Positions 4,163-37,312 of a stretch of DNA of 64,000 nucleotides are shown piece after piece. Source of the stretch: Escherichia phage vB_EcoM_Lh1B. The notes beneath the pieces were generated by a model that was not told the origin of the DNA, did not search any database, and saw only the letters and a program-made list of their open reading frames with translations. The DNA lies in sequence record OK428535.1. One strand, 5' to 3'. The first letter of the stretch is position 1. Every line of letters starts with the position of its first letter. A program made the translations under genes and the position numbers.

Positions 4163-5676
4163 TGAAAGACGTCGACGTAGCGGTTATTTATACCGATGGT
4201 AGTCATACTGAGTCCCCGAAAGGTTCGGGGGCTGGTATTCATGGTTATTTATTCAACAACGGAGATTTGGAAGACAGTCAGGCTTATAGCCATCCGGGTG
4301 TTTCANAANGGATTACCACTGTTGGATANAAAAAAGNGCCGCAGGNTGNGAAGTGTCCGGNGTTGCCGGACACCGTTNAATTTNTNGACGCCGTTNTTCC
4401 CGTTCCNAAANAGTTNTNCNCAGATGTGGGNGNGTTAATCNCCTTCATCACGTTNTTTGAGAACGCGCCCTTCCGCGCGAAGAACTATATCATCTACGTG
4501 GATGCCAGTTACGTTGTAAACACTTTTAACGAGTGGATAGACGGCTGGCATAAACGTGGTTGGGTTCGTGCTGACGGTACTCCGCTGGCGAACAAAGAAC
4601 TTATTGTTCGTATCTGGGAAATCAAACAGCAGATGAAAAAAGAAGGACGGGGTGTTAAGGTTATCAAAATCAAAGGACACTCCGGCCACTACGGTAACGA
4701 CCGGGCGGACGAATTGGCTAGAAAAGGTTCAGCCATCACAGCGACCAACGACGGCGTTCCATATCAGCCGTACTGGTCGAAGGATGAGTTGCCTGCATCC
4801 GCGGAACCCGAGCCCATCGCCGCTGGGATGAACCTTGCGGCATATCCGCCTATTTGTACGGTTAAATATTGCTATCCGTTGGTGAACGAGGACCATCCTA
4901 CTGTAAAAGTGAAAGATGAAACTTTCTATTACATGTTTGGTGGCAACCATGCAAAGAACAAGGACGACTTGGTGTTTATTGGGAAAATGATTCCTGATGC
5001 ACACTTTTCCGTAATGTTCACTAAACAACCGTGGGATAACATCTACACGATTGTAAATACCCACGCCGCCCTGGCATGGAAAGATACACCGAAGATGCGG
5101 CAGTATGATCCAATCGGTGTTGTTAACAATGAGTTCGTTAAACGTAAGAAGTTCGTTGATGTGGCAGGTGATGGATTACCGGCAGACAAGATGCATTTCA
5201 GTGGAGAAGATTCCAATGTCTGGTTCTTTGAAGACCTGGCCATCTCCAGAATGCTTCGCCCGCCCTTATTGTCGTACCGTGCGCTGGATATTCGTGATGA
5301 ACTCGCTACAACGTTGCGAGATGTTCTGCATCAGGAAAAGGGTTACGTCTTAAACGACATTACCGACTTGCTATTCGACGACAAAGGTAAACCTGTCAAG
5401 GAATACTACCGTAGCGTCGATAAGTCAATAACGTTAAAGATTGACTTTCCGATGGGTAAACGACCTGTCTCGGTTATTTTGACTCGCGGTATCGATATTC
5501 CATCACGTACGGAAATCAACCGTATTAAAGAACCCGAAGGCCGTTATTACATCGCGGTGTGTCGTCCTGAAAAATACTACATCCGTTACTTCTTAATCTA
5601 TATCGGTAAAGAGTATCATGGGTTGTGGTGTGCGTATTACGCAAACCGTCGCATACTGCGAGAAGAAGAGGTGTAA
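4162..5676 (+). CDS. RNase HI-domain protein with large C-terminal extension
   Basis: 504 aa; N-terminal VAVIYTDGSH...GSGAGIHGYLF and KIKGHSGHYGNDRADELARKG match RNase HI catalytic blocks; about 350 aa of unknown function follow; N calls inside the RNase H domain. Confidence 0.65.
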   Translation: MKDVDVAVIYTDGSHTESPKGSGAGIHGYLFNNGDLEDSQAYSHPGVSXXITTVGXKKXPQXXKCPXLPDTVXFXDAVXPVXKXXXXDVXXLIXFITXFENAPFRAKNYIIYVDASYVVNTFNEWIDGWHKRGWVRADGTPLANKELIVRIWEIKQQMKKEGRGVKVIKIKGHSGHYGNDRADELARKGSAITATNDGVPYQPYWSKDELPASAEPEPIAAGMNLAAYPPICTVKYCYPLVNEDHPTVKVKDETFYYMFGGNHAKNKDDLVFIGKMIPDAHFSVMFTKQPWDNIYTIVNTHAALAWKDTPKMRQYDPIGVVNNEFVKRKKFVDVAGDGLPADKMHFSGEDSNVWFFEDLAISRMLRPPLLSYRALDIRDELATTLRDVLHQEKGYVLNDITDLLFDDKGKPVKEYYRSVDKSITLKIDFPMGKRPVSVILTRGIDIPSRTEINRIKEPEGRYYIAVCRPEKYYIRYFLIYIGKEYHGLWCAYYANRRILREEEV

Positions 5677-18568: not shown

Positions 18569-19214
18569 TATTCTCAAAAACTTAGACGAGCAGCAGGAAA
18601 AAGAAGTCATTACTGTTGCGCGTGAGTCCATCTCTACGGAGAAGGAACGTGAGTATTGCATGTGGGTTAAACCCACTGAAGAAGGTTGGCAATGGCTGTT
18701 TGGTCAGACAGGTGAAACGTTCCTGGATGTGATTATGCCGGTCGTTAACGGCAAACGTCGTGTGCGGTTGTCCACCGATAAAACCGCAGTGTTGACGTTA
18801 AAACGGCAAGCATCTGACGGACGTATCGAAGAGAACTCGGATATCGGGTTTGCTTCGGGTCTGACCTTCTACGAAGATGGCAATCTTGCACATCTCGTGC
18901 GTCGTATCAAACTCGAACCAGGTGAACTGGCAGAGCAAGGTGCGAAGCATTGGGATATTGATCTGTTCTTTAAACTGGCAGGTCACCCAGTTATCGAATC
19001 GCAGGCAGGTTTCGAAGACCTTGTCAACGAACTGCGCGACTCCACGACATTCGGCGAGTGGGTAAAAGTCGAACTGGAAGTTGAGCGATTTGAGCTGACG
19101 TCTATCAAGGACGTATTGCCGTTTGCAGTAGAAGACGCTATTCCAGGCAACCCGTCGGATGCTGAAGCCCAGGAAGTCATTCGGAACTACTGGGATAATG
19201 AAACCCGCATCTAA
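18552..19214 (+). CDS. hypothetical protein
   Basis: 220-aa ORF. Confidence 0.55.
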   Translation: MMGLFDILKNLDEQQEKEVITVARESISTEKEREYCMWVKPTEEGWQWLFGQTGETFLDVIMPVVNGKRRVRLSTDKTAVLTLKRQASDGRIEENSDIGFASGLTFYEDGNLAHLVRRIKLEPGELAEQGAKHWDIDLFFKLAGHPVIESQAGFEDLVNELRDSTTFGEWVKVELEVERFELTSIKDVLPFAVEDAIPGNPSDAEAQEVIRNYWDNETRI

Positions 19215-19218
19215 GTCG

Positions 19219-19255
19219 TGCCCTCTCCTTCGGGAGAGGGTATCTTTATTTTTTA
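19219..19255 (+). terminator. intrinsic terminator
   Basis: Stem CCCTCTCC / GGAGAGGG with TTCG loop followed by T-tract. Confidence 0.6.
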
Positions 19256-19272
19256 TCTTAAGGAGTATGTAA

Positions 19273-19635
19273 ATGCAAATCGGCTTCTTCTTTAATCGTC
19301 ACGGAATCGTGTTTGTTTGTGGTGTTCCGGATAGTGACGGGAGACGTGTACNCANNTTAGAACTCGACGAAACATCTATGGTNGNGTGGAAAGAGAAACT
19401 TGCNCCCTTCGCAGAAGGTAAGTTTCAACTATTGCAACTCTACACGCAAGCTGCGTCGCCACGCGTGGCTTTCTCTAGGCTTGGGGACAGTGAAGACACC
19501 ACACACCTGGTTATCTTCAGTGGGCAGCCTGGTCGTGTATTGAGCGAATTATTGATGGGATTCAACCCGCCTAGCAAGCCCAGGATGAATACGTACAATG
19601 TGCACGACAGTAGTCAAATTCTTATTCTTCGATAA
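19273..19635 (+). CDS. hypothetical protein
   Basis: 120-aa ORF with AAGGAG RBS. Confidence 0.5.
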   Translation: MQIGFFFNRHGIVFVCGVPDSDGRRVXXLELDETSMXXWKEKLXPFAEGKFQLLQLYTQAASPRVAFSRLGDSEDTTHLVIFSGQPGRVLSELLMGFNPPSKPRMNTYNVHDSSQILILR

Positions 19636-19683
19636 TTTACGGCCACGGCTGTACGTATGTAAAAGACCTCAAGGAGAACTATA

Positions 19684-20103
19684 ATGAACAATATCGCGTT
19701 TGAAAAAGGCGTTGGCTTACTTCTGAACAACACCATCGTCGCTGGCACTAATAACGCNAACTGGGAAGCGTTAGCACAACGTCTCAAAGACAAGCCGGTG
19801 AAAATCGTGGTGACGAGCGAGTTACCGTTAAACGGCACAATGGCAAACTGTGGTCCAATGTTTGCAGCGTTTAATGTCGACTATGATTGCGGCTCCGCTT
19901 TCTTACAAAACGCCGCGTTACGTAGCCGTCTGTACAGCTGGCGTTTACTAGGTCCGGTAAGTAAAGCCGCAGGTCAAATGGTTAACCAGGGAACACCGAT
20001 GTCGGGTGTAGAAGACCAGACTATCGCCGTTGTCGTTTCTCGCGCAACCGGCCAGCTTAACTTTGCAATCTGCTACGCGTATCAGGAGGAGGAGTATGTT
20101 TAG
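19684..20103 (+). CDS. hypothetical protein
   Basis: 139-aa ORF with AAGGAGA RBS. Confidence 0.5.
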   Translation: MNNIAFEKGVGLLLNNTIVAGTNNXNWEALAQRLKDKPVKIVVTSELPLNGTMANCGPMFAAFNVDYDCGSAFLQNAALRSRLYSWRLLGPVSKAAGQMVNQGTPMSGVEDQTIAVVVSRATGQLNFAICYAYQEEEYV

Positions 20104-20956
20104 TATCATTCAGCAAGTTCAAGCGGTCGAAGAGTGGTTTCGGCAAGCGGATATTTACCAATACGGGACACGCGAGCAGCAGCTAGCCAAGTTCTATCGC
20201 ACATTAGGCGACGTCGCTGAAGGTGTGCAGAAGATGGACAACTTGAAAGTGGCGGCGGCCATGGGTCGCTCTCTTTGGGCGTTCGTTGGTCTGTTGCACT
20301 TCGGCAAGCACACGAACGTGGGAGATTTCGTTATTCCACTGGATGCAGCTATAAAAGACCGCACCACGGGAAACACCAAAGAGTTCCGTCTTCATAACCT
20401 TTTTGTTGTTGCCACCGAAGTGGTTGGACTCATATTGCAAGATGAGCACGAGCCCCACAGCTACGTTACCGAGCTGCATAGTTTGGCGCGACAATACCGA
20501 ATGTTGGCGCGTATCTGCGGCCTGGAATTCGGCCGTGTAATATACAACGGACATCGTGTGCTAATCAACACGAAAGGTGAAATGAACGGCATCGGGTTGT
20601 TTGTTCCCGCGTCTGATGATTTTACTGGCGATAAATTGCCTGGTTCTAGACAGATGTCTGGGCCAGCCATCTGTCTGATGTTCCAGACTGTCCTGGACAG
20701 TTGTGTCGCTACGCACCTTGCGCCCTATTGCCACCGGCCGTTTAAACGCGACGAGTTGCCGACAATCAATGCTGCACTCGCAACTACGTTAAACGAACTG
20801 CTGGACAAATATGTTCGTGACTCAGTGCGCTGGAATCGTATCCTGTTCGAACGTGTACCTGAAATAACCGCAGCCTACACAGATGGCGGTGTGAATGTGG
20901 TGATGAATGATGATCTACTTTACTTATTTGAAAGCTTAAAGAGGGATAGTATCTAA
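20096..20956 (+). CDS. hypothetical protein, translationally coupled to thymidylate synthase
   Basis: In-frame ATG at 20096 preceded by AGGAGGAGG; its stop overlaps the thyA start (TAATG). Confidence 0.55.
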
Positions 20957-21987
20957 TGAAACAGTATCTTGAAATGATGCAGAATATTCTGGATGAAGGG
21001 CATGTTAAAGGCGATCGTACTGGGACAGGGACGCTCTCCGTCTTTGGTCGCCAAATGCGTTTTGATTTGCGCAAAGGTTTCCCGTTAGTCACGACTAAGA
21101 AACTCCACCTGCGTTCTATTATTCACGAACTGCTGTGGTTCCTTAGTGGCGATACCAACACCAAATATCTGGAAGATAACGGCGTTACCATTTGGCGGGA
21201 GTGGCAAGATGAAAATGGGAACCTTGGCCCCCTGTATGGGGAACAGTGGAGACGTTGGAAAGATGTGAAACTGGTGCCTAAGAAAAATGCAGCTTTACTC
21301 GAGAAACTGCAAGATGCTGGATACGTGGATTATGGCGACGCGGACGACGGTTCACAAATGTTCGATGCGCGTGTACTTCTGAAACTACACGACCAAATCT
21401 CTAAGGTGATTGACCAACTGCGTAACGATCCTGACAGTCGCCGTATTATTGTCAGCGCATGGAATGTGGGTGAGTTGGATCAAATGGCGTTAGCGCCGTG
21501 TCATGCTTTCTTCCAATTTTACACTCGTGAGCTGTCTATCGACGAGCGGGTGAATTGGGCAGAAGATAACGATAACGAACTCTGGTCTGATTATGTCCAC
21601 AGCACGTACGTACCCGCACCTAAGCGATTAGAGTGGTTGGATAAAGCCAACGTGCCAACCCGTATGTTGTCATGTCAGCTGTATGCACGTTCCCAAGACT
21701 TCTTCCTGGGAACACCGTTCAACATCGCGTCTTACGCATTACTCGTACACATGGTAGCTCAGCAAGTTAACATGGTCCCGGGCGATTTCGTTTGGAGTGG
21801 TGGTGACGTACATCTGTACTCCAACCATCTGGAACAGGCTAAATTGCAGCTGACGCGCCAACCTTTACCTTTACCGAAACTGGTCATCAAGCGTAAACCG
21901 GATTCTATCTTCGATTATAAGTTCGAAGATTTCGAAATCCGGGATCACGTATCCCATGAAAAAATATCTGCACCTGTCGCTATCTAA
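20956..21987 (+). CDS. thyA: thymidylate synthase (ThyA-type) with two insertions
   Basis: 343 aa; [15 protein letters not shown]...[48 protein letters not shown], active-site [27 protein letters not shown] and C-terminal KISAPVAI all match bacterial ThyA blocks in order. Confidence 0.95.
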
Positions 21988-21999
21988 TTAGGAGCGTTT

Positions 22000-22536
22000 A
22001 TGGCTGACAACGTCGTTCCATTCAAACCTAAAGTGGCGGTTGCTACGGACGAACCGCCGTTTATTCCTGTCAATGGACAGAAGATCATCGAGTTTCCAGA
22101 CGAACATCGTGGACAATTGCACGTTCCACAACCGGACGGGACGATGAAAGCTATCGGTTTCCCGATAGCTGAACAAGAATGGTGGACGCTTCTGGCCATC
22201 CAGATGATGTCGCGTGGTCTGGGTGTGTCTACGGAACCTGTCGTTCGCATTAATACCGACCCGTATATCCACGAACAAGGCAGTTGGATGGAACGACGTC
22301 GGACAATGGAGATGCAGATTAGCAAAGAAACGCTTTTGCAAATCGCAGAATCCACACCTTTCATCCTGACCTCATCTTTTAACGGGGATATGGATGAAGA
22401 CCTCTACATGCACCTTTCAGGCTTAGCAGCTGAGCACCGTATTGCAGAAGAAGAGCCTATCTATACCGAAGCGATGATTATCCATCCGACCGGCTTAGAA
22501 GGTAATACCTTTAAACTGATTTGGGTGGAGCTATGA
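22000..22536 (+). CDS. hypothetical protein
   Basis: 178-aa ORF. Confidence 0.5.
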   Translation: MADNVVPFKPKVAVATDEPPFIPVNGQKIIEFPDEHRGQLHVPQPDGTMKAIGFPIAEQEWWTLLAIQMMSRGLGVSTEPVVRINTDPYIHEQGSWMERRRTMEMQISKETLLQIAESTPFILTSSFNGDMDEDLYMHLSGLAAEHRIAEEEPIYTEAMIIHPTGLEGNTFKLIWVEL

Positions 22537-22784
22537 CTGACCGACTTACTAAAACAATTCGACTACCACAAGAGCGTAATGTTCGCAAAGGCGTTGTTTT
22601 AACGGGGGAACAACGGGTTGAATTAAAGGCCCTGTTCCCGGAACAAACCGATTATCATGTCGACCAAACGGNATTAAAAGAGTTTGCAAAGAACGCTCCT
22701 GAAATGCTGCTGCGTAAGAAAGAAGAAGAACTGAATATGCTCCGTAACAGCGTAGACGTTCTCTTTAAAACAATGGAGAAATAA
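22521..22784 (+). CDS. hypothetical protein
   Basis: 87-aa ORF. Confidence 0.45.
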   Translation: MGGAMTDRLTKTIRLPQERNVRKGVVLTGEQRVELKALFPEQTDYHVDQTXLKEFAKNAPEMLLRKKEEELNMLRNSVDVLFKTMEK

Positions 22785-22785
22785 G

Positions 22786-23553
22786 ATGATGAAGCTCTTT
22801 GCGTTCTCCGATGAATTCTACACAGTGGAATTCGACGACTACGAATACGGGTTATTAGGGGCCGTCGACATGGAAGACGCTAAACGGCAGCTTCCCACTA
22901 GCGAAATAGAAATCATTGAGATTGGGGAAACTAATCTTAGTGGTATTTTGATGCTGGGGCGGCGACCNCGNCCTGNGGAACCNGNGNNGGAAAAANAGNA
23001 AANGNNANNGNTTTTTTTGGTTTTTGAGCCGAAAGACCCCGCAGCGATAGCGAAGGTAGTCGATACGTTACGGCCACAGATTGGCGTCGCGATTGAAAAT
23101 TATCGNTGGGCTCGTTTCTCAGGCGACACGCCGATATTTTCGAATAAGCACTGGTTGTTATGTATCAACAACGACACGATAATGGTACCGTTAACAGGGG
23201 AGAAGAATTTTGAAGATAACTTCGTCCCTGGCGAAGAGTCTGTTATCTTCGAGTATACCCATGTCATCGGAAAGCCGAGCTTCTACCAAGTTCTGATTGA
23301 TGTCTTGACTCACGTCGGTCGAACCATCGAATACCACTACTGGGCACGCCAGGCGCGTTCTAAATGGTTCTCGTTGACGTACGTCGAAGGTTGGGAACGT
23401 GTTGTTGAAAAGATTGACGGGCGCTATGAGCAGATTTGGTTCCTGAACCCGGCTTTCCGTGAAGAATTACCCGCATGGGTAAAAGAAGAGGCGAGCAAGC
23501 TGACGGTTGGCTTTACTAAGCAGGGCGCGCCGTATATGGTTAACTACAAATAA
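22786..23553 (+). CDS. hypothetical protein
   Basis: 255-aa ORF; contains an N-rich homopolymer-like stretch (22968-23011) without frame loss. Confidence 0.55.
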   Translation: MMKLFAFSDEFYTVEFDDYEYGLLGAVDMEDAKRQLPTSEIEIIEIGETNLSGILMLGRRXXPXEXXXEKXXXXXXFLVFEPKDPAAIAKVVDTLRPQIGVAIENYXWARFSGDTPIFSNKHWLLCINNDTIMVPLTGEKNFEDNFVPGEESVIFEYTHVIGKPSFYQVLIDVLTHVGRTIEYHYWARQARSKWFSLTYVEGWERVVEKIDGRYEQIWFLNPAFREELPAWVKEEASKLTVGFTKQGAPYMVNYK

Positions 23554-23564
23554 GGTGAAAACAG

Positions 23565-24044
23565 ATGTCTATAACTCGGATCGATTATCGTGCCGTAGTA
23601 AAAGAACTGTCCAAAGGTCTTATCGAACTGGACTCCGATGAAGCCCGCAACTGTGGCTTCCTGCCACACATTGCACTGAGTGAGTTCCGTACCATCCGTT
23701 ACGGTGCCGGTCGTCAGAAGGGCGTTACAACACACACCGTTGATATGTCAGCAAAGTTCCACGGCAGCGTTCTGTATCTGGTCCACAATGAATCGTTACG
23801 AAACGAAGTAGTGGAGAAGTTCCATGAAAAGGCTGCCGGGAACGGTTGGTTGACCGTGCACTGTAACTACTTGCCTGAGGGTTGGAAACGCGCGACAGGT
23901 GCTGGTATATCCGGCTACGAGAAATTCGGCTTGGTTATTGTCGACGAAGCGGGTTTCTTCTTCAACAAGTTCAGTTACGATAAAATCTATCGCAGTCTGG
24001 TTGACGTAGTAACGCCAGACGTTGTGATTCACCTGATTAATTAA
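23565..24044 (+). CDS. hypothetical protein
   Basis: 159-aa ORF. Confidence 0.5.
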   Translation: MSITRIDYRAVVKELSKGLIELDSDEARNCGFLPHIALSEFRTIRYGAGRQKGVTTHTVDMSAKFHGSVLYLVHNESLRNEVVEKFHEKAAGNGWLTVHCNYLPEGWKRATGAGISGYEKFGLVIVDEAGFFFNKFSYDKIYRSLVDVVTPDVVIHLIN

Positions 24045-35522: not shown

Positions 35523-35698
35523 CGCCGACTTCCTGGCAACATTCAGGGTACTGAGTATCGGGCTTCGTTTTTTCTCGTCTTTGGGACGGGGNGGTTCNCC
35601 NAAANCNTCCCANTCGTCGANTNTATCTAAATCNATATCATCNAAACCNTCTTTNCCTCTTTTTGCCNTAANNTTTNTTCCAATTNAGGAGNTTAAAA

Positions 35699-37312
35699 AT
35701 GACAAAGCTAAAATGGGTTNACTTTTACTTGTTAAACNNCAACAAGTCCCTGGTGTCGCATTTAAAACCAGTTACAACAACAGACACCTTTCAGGGACTG
35801 ACGAAAAACTTTCACCCTGAAGGACTGTATTCAACCGAAATTTTTGGCCTCACAGGGAGCGAAGCACGAGACTCAACGTTCTCGTACATTGATATCAAAC
35901 TGGATATCATTTCGCCGACCGTTTGTTTGGCATTGTTCCAGCTGAAACAGCTGTACGAAGAAATCTGTTCCGGGAAGCGATTCGCTATCTGGAATGAGAA
36001 AGAAAAAGATTTCGAGCCGGCTCTGCCCAGTGATAAAGGTGCAGACACCGGCTTCAACTTCTTCCTACGCTACTACGAACAACTGACACCGGGACGCAAC
36101 GAATCGATGCGTCGCGACGAGACAGTCGATTTCTTCAATAAGTTCCGTCCGGTCAGTCTCAGCCGCTATGTGCTGGTTCTGCCTGCGGGATTACGTGATT
36201 TGGTCATTCGTCAGGATGGCCGCGACCAAGAAGAAGAGATTGGCGGACTCTACCGTCGTCTGATTTCTCTGGCGCGTGCAATCCCCGACCGCAGTACGCG
36301 AACGGAACTGACTGACCCGGTTCGCTGGAAGCTCCAACAAACCTTTAATGATATCTGGATGTACTTCTTCAACATCCAGGATGGTAAAGGTGGTTTTGCA
36401 CGTCGTAAAGTGACGTCACGTAAGTTAATGAACGGTACGCGTAACGTACTGTCTTCATTCTCAACCGGTTCCAAGGTCATGGGTCGCGAAGATGCGATTC
36501 GTCCAACGGATACCCGTATCGGTTTGTACCAAACCCTGAAGGCATTACTGCCTGTGGCTCAATACCACATCCGTGAACGTTACCTCAGTAACATCCGGGC
36601 AGGGGACGGCAACTTATACGGCGTTAACACCAAAACACTCAAGCGTGAGTTCCTGGAAGTCTCCGGGCGGGTGTATGACCTTTTCACTACCGACGATGGC
36701 ATCGAAACACTCATCAACAGAATGGAAGCGCGCGAGCTTCGACATAAACCGCTGATGATTGATCCGGACCATTACGTGGCATTAATCTACCAGGACAAAC
36801 GCAGCTTCAAAATCTTTTACGATATTGAAGACCTGCCGGAAGGACGTGACCGCAAGCTTGTCCGCGGACTGAGCTTAGCAGAACTCCTCTATTTGTCAGG
36901 TTACGATATTTGGAATGACTACTTCTCGTTCATCACGCGTTATCCGGTTACGGGACGCGGTTCGACTTACTCCTCGACCATAAGATTGGAGACCACCACC
37001 TCTTCCCTCTATTTGCATGAACTGGAAGACGATTGGGNCACGTTAAAAGANAAGGGNGCAATTNGNTTCCCTGACCGTACCGTGAAAACNTTTGTGGAAT
37101 CCATGGCACCACATCCANCCCNATTAGGGGGNTTGGGNGGNGACNACGANGGNGACACCGGCNCANCAAANAGCCCGATGTCAACCGAAGCGCTCGNGGA
37201 AAATCGGAAGTGGGTCAGTTCGAAAAACTACTGGTTTGCAACAGACGGCAGTTTCAAAATCAATCCGGTTAACAACGTGATTAAAAGAACGACTGCTGCG
37301 CTGTTGAAATGA
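35699..37312 (+). CDS. RNA polymerase beta-prime-like subunit, N-terminal-half homologue
   Basis: 537 aa; ordered blocks VLVLPAGLRDLV, GGLYRRLI, GKGGFARRKVTSRKLMNGTRNVL, ITRYPVTGRGS, K.AI.FP and GGD-x-[D/E]-GDTG (37142..37156) match beta-prime lid/rudder/DPBB/catalytic-loop blocks; AGGAG RBS. Confidence 0.6.
   Translation: MTKLKWVXFYLLNXNKSLVSHLKPVTTTDTFQGLTKNFHPEGLYSTEIFGLTGSEARDSTFSYIDIKLDIISPTVCLALFQLKQLYEEICSGKRFAIWNEKEKDFEPALPSDKGADTGFNFFLRYYEQLTPGRNESMRRDETVDFFNKFRPVSLSRYVLVLPAGLRDLVIRQDGRDQEEEIGGLYRRLISLARAIPDRSTRTELTDPVRWKLQQTFNDIWMYFFNIQDGKGGFARRKVTSRKLMNGTRNVLSSFSTGSKVMGREDAIRPTDTRIGLYQTLKALLPVAQYHIRERYLSNIRAGDGNLYGVNTKTLKREFLEVSGRVYDLFTTDDGIETLINRMEARELRHKPLMIDPDHYVALIYQDKRSFKIFYDIEDLPEGRDRKLVRGLSLAELLYLSGYDIWNDYFSFITRYPVTGRGSTYSSTIRLETTTSSLYLHELEDDWXTLKXKXAIXFPDRTVKXFVESMAPHPXXLGXLXXDXXXDTGXXXSPMSTEALXENRKWVSSKNYWFATDGSFKINPVNNVIKRTTAALLK

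Follow-up and report, generated by a model that had tools for sequence, protein, structure and literature searches.

A jumbo-phage thymidylate synthase with two folded, clade-wide insertions, one of them apparently an exchanged copy of a small recurrent module

The window analysed here, that is, the whole 64,000-nucleotide (nt) stretch of Escherichia phage vB_EcoM_Lh1B (record OK428535.1), contains a thyA gene whose product is longer than the 264-amino-acid (aa) thymidylate synthase (TS, ThyA) of Escherichia coli, and the question raised by this locus is what the two extra segments are and how they came to be there. The explanation preferred here, to which a probability of roughly 70% is given, is that the gene encodes an SPN3US-like jumbo-phage ThyA with an intact core, in which two folded insertions, Ins1 and Ins2, have been inherited within the jumbo-phage clade, and in which the second is a module that has been exchanged between phages. 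As an enzyme it is nothing unusual, and it has its annotation already, being called 'thymidylate synthase' throughout the Seoulvirus records (SPN3US_0229 in phage SPN3US). A new point is the uncharacterised small domain, which recurs at several loops of TS, in other proteins and alone, and literature searches found no published description either of the insertions or of the module.

First of all, the gene product is best read as the phage's own classical ThyA, predicted to be a working cytoplasmic TS. The open reading frame (ORF) has 1032 nt, an ATG start and zero ambiguous bases, and its product gives an end-to-end match to Pfam PF00303 (Thymidylat_synt, EC 2.1.1.45; 368.3 bits, E 2.3e-110, cut-off 24.3), residues 2-343 covering positions 1-266 of the 266 in the profile. 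It also matches phrog_160 in PHROG at 1e-114. The closest relative in the PDB is E. coli ThyA (406 bits, phmmer), and the AlphaFold2 (AF2) model has the TS fold, with a template modelling (TM) score of 0.81 to E. coli TS. The full-length Pfam match and the alignment with E. coli ThyA bear out the sequence-only reading of this DNA, in which a classical ThyA with its core blocks had been recognised; the peptides quoted there are all present.

In this alignment (E. coli numbering is written Ec), C182-H183 correspond to C146-H147 and are invariant across 33 relatives; the phosphate-binding set for deoxyuridine monophosphate (dUMP), R21, R162/R163 (=Ec126/127), R245 and S246, is kept and invariant, and E58, W80, W83, Y94, D248 (=D169), H286 (=H207) and Y288 (=Y209) are also retained. 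N256 (=N177) is present, the residue of the dUMP type, which is Asp in the hydroxymethylases of deoxycytidine monophosphate (dCMP); this Asn argues for dUMP rather than dCMP as the probable substrate, and the C-terminal APVAI is kept. Judged from these alignments, the residues known to do TS chemistry are all present, Q165A being the exception: the conserved Gln of the YQRS motif is replaced by A244 (YARS) in the window protein, while most relatives have Q and some M. Q165 is conserved in E. coli-type TS and is not known to take part in the chemical mechanism, and literature searches on its role in TS gave nothing relevant. As a separate observation, the nucleotide-binding strand is strongly altered to LSCFYMMRSNDYLLGAPFNV in P0075-P0120, which come from phage contigs of ~220-226 kb labelled Salmonella/Shigella; set against LSCQLYQRSADxFLGVPFNI, these proteins carry Q163F, L164Y, Y to M before Q165, and Q165M, with R166, S167, D169 and N177 retained. 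It has been reported that SPN3US-like phages encode dihydrofolate reductase (DHFR) (PMC6614189), which fits true TS turnover, and that the TS of phage PhiPA3 fused to green fluorescent protein (TS-GFP) is excluded from the phage nucleus (bioRxiv 10.1101/2021.04.26.441357). The enzyme would thus act in the cytoplasm of the host during infection, outside the phage nucleus, and convert dUMP to deoxythymidine monophosphate (dTMP) with methylene-tetrahydrofolate.

The excess length lies at two places. In the phmmer alignment, residues 1-102, 146-191 and 237-343 of the window protein match Ec1-102, Ec110-155 and Ec158-264, respectively, and the segments between these blocks are Ins1 and Ins2 (Table 1). 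Ins1 has 43 aa where E. coli has 7 (net +36) and Ins2 has 45 aa where E. coli has 2 (net +43), which together make up the difference of 343-264 = 79. Both of the insertions proposed from the letters alone are real; the ~40 aa given for the second was about right, and the ~25 aa given for the first fell short of the actual +36. Structure prediction, which had been suggested as a means of placing them, puts a folded Ins1 at the Ec103-109 loop and Ins2 at the Ec155-158 hairpin. Ins1 is modelled as strand-helix-strand-strand (E101-108, H112-120, E124-130, E137-145; E, strand; H, helix), with a predicted local distance difference test (pLDDT) score of 72-89 for the block, and Ins2 is modelled as three helices (H195-204, H208-214, H221-230) flanked by extended strands (E184-192, E236-244). 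Ins1 would form a strand-helix-hairpin unit in its loop, and Ins2 would be plugged into the tip of the beta-hairpin that leads from the catalytic-Cys strand to the LSCQLY strand. By strand register, Ins2 would stand ~10 residues away from the active site on its strand, beside the LSCQLY strand, which is the dimer-interface strand in known TS structures. The two segments differ in kind: Ins1 has a conserved G(Y/F), the rest of it diverging fast (aa identity to CR5 and Caitlin 16-28%), and in Ins2 the residues E197, P234 and R236 are kept by all of 33 diverse sequences.

The insertions are folded additions inherited within the TS clade of jumbo phages of the Chimalliviridae type. Among the best 120 homologues from 5.8 billion clustered proteins, which are 274-406 aa each and many of which lie on 210-245-kb contigs, Ins2 was present in 110 of the 110 that were parseable, and Ins1 in most. 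When the 48-aa Ins2 peptide alone was used in tblastn, the matches were almost exclusively annotated TS genes of jumbo phages, among them those of phiKZ-like Pseudomonas phages, of Erwinia phages Joad, RisingSun and Ea35-70, of Klebsiella phage FBKp24 and of Pseudomonas phage Viktualia. Reading of the genes placed Ins2 at the same hairpin as in the window in the enzymes of phiKZ-like phages (including phiKZ gp235, 201phi2-1 and OMKO1), Ea35-70, FBKp24, Viktualia, Joad, CR5, Caitlin and Serratia phage PCH45. Ins1 is shared with the phiKZ-like, CR5-like and Caitlin-like enzymes and with most other relatives, and is absent from P0056, P0073, Ea35-70, FBKp24 and PCH45. Compared with the window, other jumbo-phage TS have added copies of a module (InsA, InsB, and one after the SNH helix), some have an intein or intron, and their cores are 39-96% identical to it.

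Since the Ins2-bearing enzymes of phiKZ-like and other distant jumbo phages have TS cores only 39-55% identical to the window protein, Ins2 is considered old, and its presence in phiKZ-like, Erwinia, FBKp24 and PCH45 enzymes indicates that the insertions long predate the association with Salmonella/E. coli. In BFVD, the structure that fits best is the predicted TS of 201phi2-1, at TMq 0.81 against 0.64 for any solved TS (E. coli), so that the extra parts seem to superpose too. The description of the insertions as lineage-specific is thus right in that they are confined to the phage clade, but the lineage is a broad one, reaching phiKZ-like, Erwinia, Klebsiella and Serratia phages.

For the bacterial comparison, the best 80 of 431 relatives in species-representative genomes were taken, 77 of which were parsed. 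Of these enzymes, 74 are exactly 264 aa, and the extra segments occur in none of the bacterial relatives retrieved, so the possibility that they are merely part of ordinary bacterial ThyA found no support. E. coli ThyA (264 aa; PDB 2TSC, 1AOB) resembles the window protein in 75% of the core, in both termini (MKQYL..., ...APVAI) and in all catalytic residues but one; it differs in lacking the +36 aa, the +43 aa, Q165A, C168Q and L174T, and it falls outside the phage clade. T4/T2 Td (286 aa) is, like the window enzyme, a phage ThyA with lineage-specific surface additions, and the alignment with phage Td shows that T2 Td carries neither Ins1 nor Ins2, having additions of its own in the small domain and near the C-terminus. 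The inserts of T4 Td are reportedly proposed, in the paper on its structure, to be contact surfaces for the complex that synthesises deoxynucleoside triphosphates. The 50-residue small-domain insertion of Lactobacillus casei TS and the insertions of eukaryotic TS show that the loops after Ec84 and at Ec103-109 tolerate insertions; 316-aa L. casei TS chains are among the PDB matches of the window ThyA, and no sequence relationship of the L. casei or eukaryotic insertions to the module was seen. No solved TS with an insertion in the Ec155-158 hairpin was found, and no PDB target covers Ins2 (TMq <= 0.64).

Judged by profile comparison, Ins2 is probably a copy of an unnamed module of ~45-60 aa, consisting of a beta stalk and three helices, which is found at up to four TS sites and also free-standing. 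Its motif is TRELSxxER..W..N...(W/F)LDxxGVPxR, with the variants (T)RELSxxER..W..N and (W/F)LDxxG(V/I)P(R/T) in InsA and InsB. InsA is a further insertion of ~60 aa after Ec84 in some relatives, InsB is a third insertion, located before the catalytic Cys in FBKp24-type enzymes, and a metagenomic TS (P0132) has a partial module match after the SNH helix. The profiles of Ins2 and InsA align over 47 columns with an hhalign probability of 96% (P 3e-9), and the Ins2 hidden Markov model (HMM) gives 34.5 bits with the InsA of FBKp24, while the maximum in 2400 shuffled controls was 10.6 bits. The window Ins2 scores 71.8 bits with the Ins2 HMM and 62 bits with the combined HMM, models that include close relatives of the window; because of this, the independent support is the match between the InsA and Ins2 profiles. 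For P0060, AF2 gives InsA (E89-94, three helices, E141-146) and Ins2 (E247-255, three helices, E299-311) the same layout, and the predicted AF2 secondary structure of the window Ins2 likewise has a two-strand stalk and three short helices.

Outside TS, the module profile was searched against 1.84 billion representative proteins, with 26 matches at E <= 1e-3, most of which are jumbo-phage-type TS. Five small module proteins of 49-161 aa were found (P0125, P0126, P0133, P0137 and P0138; E 3.5e-8 to 1e-4), and the contig bearing P0125 has two adjacent paralogues, one with one module copy and the other with two. Adjacent paralogues of this kind stand on the 3-kb metagenome contig L091, which has no TS, where the small genes at 2080-2424 and 2417-2902 differ in having one or two modules (ERELSLEER...PTKLIT) between WGLKIE and ...ESYE. 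In Viktualia (L007, 1977-2327), a 116-aa 'hypothetical protein' is made up of two tandem modules (module HMM, E 1.4e-9), and the start of its ORF overlaps the thyA stop; the first of the two copies has an extra beta-rich insert resembling part of the large phiKZ InsA. A free-standing module gene beside thyA was found in Viktualia and not in three short metagenomic contigs, and the module HMM detected no further copies in six-frame translations of the window.

With regard to known domains, the module matched no Pfam, PHROG or PDB sequence family, and for Ins2, InsA and the Viktualia module there was no Pfam match at E <= 10, HeH, SAP, LEM and Ish1 included. The final helix of the module, with its turn (WLDxxG[VI]P), resembles the first half of the Ish1/HeH repeat, and the Ish1 protein P0145 gives a weak multi-repeat match to the module profile; the weak matches are to repeat proteins (Ish1/HeH, PG-binding-like repeat, ankyrin), through the WLDxxGIP half-motif only. 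However, HeH has a second helix where the module chain returns into a beta strand, only ~15 residues match, and by Pfam the module is not a member of the HeH, SAP or Ish1 domains.

The DNA of Ins2 has a history of its own. In the tract of codons ~197-243, the window is 98% identical at the nt level to Erwinia phage Caitlin (92-98% across Ins2), while the flanks are 67-78% identical; compared with SPN3US, the window is 94-96% identical up to codon ~198 and then 40% through the second part of Ins2. The rate of synonymous substitution (dS) between the window and Caitlin is 0.054 in Ins2, whereas the core is saturated. The Caitlin-like tract together with the low dS of Ins2 indicates that a ~140-nt cassette was recently exchanged between the Machinavirus-like and Seoulvirus lineages, and by these alignments the Ins2 of the window lineage appears to have been recently replaced by such a cassette from a Caitlin-like phage. 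With CR5, which has the same Ins2 type, the comparison of Ins2 gives a nonsynonymous rate (dN) of 0.23, a dS of 2.8 and a dN/dS of ~0.08, with 17 silent changes in 45 codons; the dN/dS of the core is about 0.1, the same regime, so that Ins2 behaves as a constrained part of the protein. The variant patch next to the tract (Table 1) was found, among the top 120 matches, in the EC001-like subclade only, P0057 being similar, and this same short segment reads either QRSADVFLGVPFN or QRSCDIFLGLPFN in CR5-like genes that are otherwise nearly identical.

The thyA of the window has neither intein nor intron: the frame is contiguous, Pfam finds the TS domain only, and 19000-24000 gives no Rfam match even at E <= 1, so the earlier statement that no such signature is visible holds for this copy. 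It is in relatives that such elements stand on either side of Ins2. In OMKO1, which is phiKZ-like, and in Joad, thyA is split after ...LSCQLYQR, the intervening sequence encodes a GIY-YIG endonuclease, and exon 2 restarts with S(A/V)D.FLG.PFN; at the OMKO1 junction Rfam Intron_gpI is matched at 69 bits (E 1.5e-16). Several of the metagenomic matches are exon-1 products, that is, they end in YQR plus read-through. The split genes with their GIY-YIG/NUMOD-type endonuclease occupy 1653-1890 and 1821-2711 in OMKO1 (L003) and 1710-2776 in Joad (L004), and both records annotate the thyA exons as two separate 'thymidylate synthase' genes. Two metagenomic jumbo-phage-type TS, P0127 (796 aa, intein at ~277-613) and P0136 (821 aa, ~320-658), have a LAGLIDADG intein directly before the catalytic Cys (...TP/C...HN/CH..., junctions marked by slashes), recognised by the Pfam families Intein_splicing, Hint and LAGLIDADG. 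OMKO1, P0127 and P0136 therefore belong to the intein- or intron-split td/thyA genes, and the window gene does not. The T4 td gene is interrupted by a group I intron that encodes the GIY-YIG endonuclease I-TevI, and the GIY-YIG intron of the window's relatives lies in the same conserved YQRS..FLG.PFN region, ~7 codons upstream of what we take to be the T4 site (between FLG and LPFN).

In the numbering of the window, the intein site is 10 codons upstream of Ins2 and the intron site 8-9 codons downstream of it, the exon ends of Joad and OMKO1 placing the latter between R245 and S246 (nt 21690 and 21691). The variant patch covers this position, and the target there reads canonically …CAGCTGTATCAGCGTAGTGCGGAT… as against …CAGCTGTATGCACGTTCCCAAGAC… in the window allele. 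We infer that homing-associated gene conversion, helped by conserved flanking codons and by homing elements on either side in relatives, would explain the cassette behaviour of Ins2, and the same reasoning would account for the unusually variable codons at the intron site.

As for what the insertions do, they may face away from the active site and supply a surface for protein-protein contacts. Through it the subunits would touch each other more extensively or only within the homodimer, or TS would dock to another phage protein of nucleotide synthesis; from the models, such a subunit- or partner-contact role is the most economical guess. A further proposal, which is only tentatively put forward, is that Ins2 is a mobile 'plug-in' domain whose termini, meeting in a stalk, have let it repeatedly colonise loops of TS and some other small phage proteins besides existing alone, giving the TS of nucleus-forming phages a new selectable property, for instance a surface for docking or self-association, and whose spread has been driven by the flanking homing elements. 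It is also possible, though we think it unlikely, that the insertions are functionless passengers, that is to say, a selfish or neutral in-frame element which became entrenched and was moved about by recombination and homing-associated gene conversion. The finding of the same module at up to four loops and in unrelated small proteins speaks for such passengers, as do the variable presence of InsA, InsB and Ins1 among close relatives, the middle of Ins2, which is hypervariable between types, the standing of this gene as a known hub of selfish elements (intein and intron), and the conserved residues (ER, W, N, LD, GVP, R), which resemble a folding framework. However, Ins2 is kept in every clade member examined, where one would expect at least some lineages to have lost a free passenger or let it decay, and within one Ins2 type its dN/dS is as low as that of the core, although entrenchment could nevertheless mimic this pattern.

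The sharp differences between Ins2 types in genes otherwise 94% identical, and the movement of one type between Erwinia-phage and Salmonella/E. coli-phage lineages, may also be seen as the marks of an arms race, in which the insertions form a surface that escapes a factor of host defence or of a competitor phage, or that blocks mixed dimers with the 75%-identical host ThyA; the position of Ins2 directly before the dimer-interface strand would suit the latter. In Ins1, the differences between the window and SPN3US (L001) are all non-synonymous, with 0 silent changes in 43 codons (5 nt and 3 aa changes) beside a dS of 0.50 in the flanking core; this lack could reflect recent homogenisation, selection at the nucleotide level or diversifying change, and the numbers are small. 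A published scan also lists TS codons 89 and 92 as positively selected in SPFM phages (PMC6614189). Nevertheless, an arms race is considered improbable, since the analysis turned up neither a defence system nor an inhibitor directed against phage TS, Ins2 is under purifying and not diversifying selection within a type, and the codon counts are small. At the two scanned positions the window has N89 and the canonical P92 (nt 21220-21222 and 21229-21231), and EC001-like and SPN3US-like relatives have E92 and A96 (GNLGELYGAQ, GDLGEIYGAQ).

The origin of the core was examined over 255 columns, with both loop positions removed. The core of the window ThyA is 74.9% identical to that of E. coli, 78.4% to that of Corallincola, 75-76% to those of Aeromonas and Gilliamella, and 71-74% to those of the 264-aa-type enzymes of Bacteroidota and Bacillota. 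The core is thus host-like, as had been said, to the extent of 75% identity with E. coli, but it is equally or more like Corallincola and Aeromonas and close to the ThyA of Bacteroidota and Bacillota. In a neighbour-joining (NJ) tree of the cores, the insertion-bearing phage enzymes are monophyletic in 126 of 200 bootstraps (63%) and sister to a broad gammaproteobacterial cluster, whereas a clade of the phage enzymes with E. coli and Pantoea appears in 1 of 200. The core seems therefore to be of a widespread gammaproteobacterial type with no sign of recent enterobacterial capture, and the insertions appear to be old jumbo-phage traits. The acquisition from an enterobacterial host that had been suggested earlier finds no support in these identities or in the tree. 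It remains true that E. coli ThyA is the best match among solved structures and that its core blocks are 75% identical, but for a recent capture from such a host, followed by the rise of two private insertions, the equal or greater similarity to non-enterobacterial ThyA, the place of the phage clade apart from E. coli and Pantoea, and the same insertions in Pseudomonas phiKZ-like and other jumbo phages with TS cores of 39-55% identity leave very little probability. Least credible of all is the reading of the protein as a paralogue of the TS family whose chemistry has changed, for example to that of a dUMP hydroxymethylase which feeds thymidine hypermodification, for although Q165A and its neighbouring changes lie in the nucleotide-binding strand and TS-family hydroxymethylases are common in phages (PMC7824862), this reading was rejected on the residue evidence of N256 (=N177), the full TS catalytic set, APVAI and the canonical YQRS(A/C)D of the nearest relatives, and on the reported DHFR (PMC6614189), which is needed only after true TS turnover.

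Several points weigh against the preferred explanation, the SPN3US-like ThyA with clade-wide insertions and an exchanged Ins2. In the core, Q165A is accompanied by C168Q and L174T, while close relatives keep the canonical residues, and the monophyly of the phage clade has a bootstrap value of only 63%. In phiKZ, knockdown of TS is reported to have produced no more than a weak phenotype (PMC12571901), and under laboratory conditions the phage may therefore be able to do without the enzyme. The AF2 models of the window protein and P0060 are moderate (mean pLDDT 72 and 76; pTM, the predicted TM score, 0.67), the insertions being among the better-predicted parts, and where the insertions stand with respect to the active site and the dimer interface was reasoned from the strand register of these predicted models. 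The conserved residues of the module look structural and point to no ligand or partner. Finally, the link between homing and the exchange of Ins2 is circumstantial, as the window and Caitlin are both without intron and intein.

The significance of the preferred explanation is that the extra segments would be a conserved signature by which the TS of nucleus-forming jumbo phages is recognised, and which could serve as a sequence marker for chimallivirus-type TS in metagenomes. In this gene region a cassette has been exchanged between phages that infect different host genera, and an intein site and an intron site lie close by; it would offer a compact natural system for the study of how a module enters and moves, in frame, within an essential and highly conserved enzyme. 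If the modules do serve for docking, this would speak for an organised machinery of nucleotide supply outside the phage nucleus.

In megablast, thyA is closest to SPN3US-like jumbo phages of Salmonella/E. coli (Seoulvirus), the top match being the 'thymidylate synthase' of Escherichia phage vB_EcoM_EC001 at 95% nt identity, and Seoulvirus has been placed in the nucleus-forming Chimalliviridae (10.1101/2024.12.31.630880; PMC13282480). The genes around it, most of them hypothetical, form a long block read rightwards. The TAA stop of the upstream ORF overlaps the ATG of thyA (TAATG), an arrangement that suggests that the two genes, both of nucleotide metabolism, are translationally coupled.

Table 1. 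Features of the thyA locus in the window (positions counted from the first letter of the stretch)
Feature	Position	Strand	Basis
Upstream ORF, 308 aa, weak MazG-like nucleotide pyrophosphohydrolase N-terminal region	20030..20956	+	PHROG phrog_10269 8e-79, phrog_7855 mazG 1.5e-8
thyA coding sequence, 343 aa + stop	20956..21987	+	ORF list and translation, Pfam, PDB match; homologue of SPN3US_0229 and EC001 MGA_227
Ins1, residues 103-145, replacing the 7-residue loop Ec103-109	21262..21390	+	phmmer block boundaries
Catalytic Cys182 codon, PCH motif	21499..21501	+	aligned with E. coli C146
Ins2 with stalk, TRELS...TRML	21523-21669	+	beta-stalked three-helix module
Ins2, residues 192-236, in beta-hairpin Ec155-158	21529..21663	+	phmmer block boundaries
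Putative recombinant tract, codons ~197-243	21544..21684	+	codon alignment, near-identical DNA to Erwinia phage Caitlin
Variant patch, Ec165-174 (Q165A, C168Q, L174T)	21685..21714	+	ten codons matching neither SPN3US nor Caitlin DNA

In the neighbourhood, the SPLA3 record names the homologue of the upstream ORF 'restriction endonuclease', and EC001 has a second MazG-like gene ~2.3 kb downstream. A second TS in SPN3US, gp100 (SPN3US_0100), was considered and rejected: PMC5694885 predicts it to be a thymidylate synthase, whereas GenBank JN641803 calls it a putative thymidylate kinase, and on the latter annotation SPN3US has a single ThyA. The GenBank coding sequence of SPN3US_0229 begins 7 codons downstream of the homologous start (12021 versus 12000 in L001), which is a GTG aligned with the ATG of the window, and this later start explains the 337/339-aa variants among the database proteins. 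Elsewhere in the window there are 247 single-base N positions in ~50 patches, for example at 1458-1592, 2722-2798, 4306-4455, 22968-23106, 35592-35739 and 37038-37197, with 0 within thyA; they look more like the consensus of a mixed population, or polymorphic or mosaic patches, than like assembly gaps.

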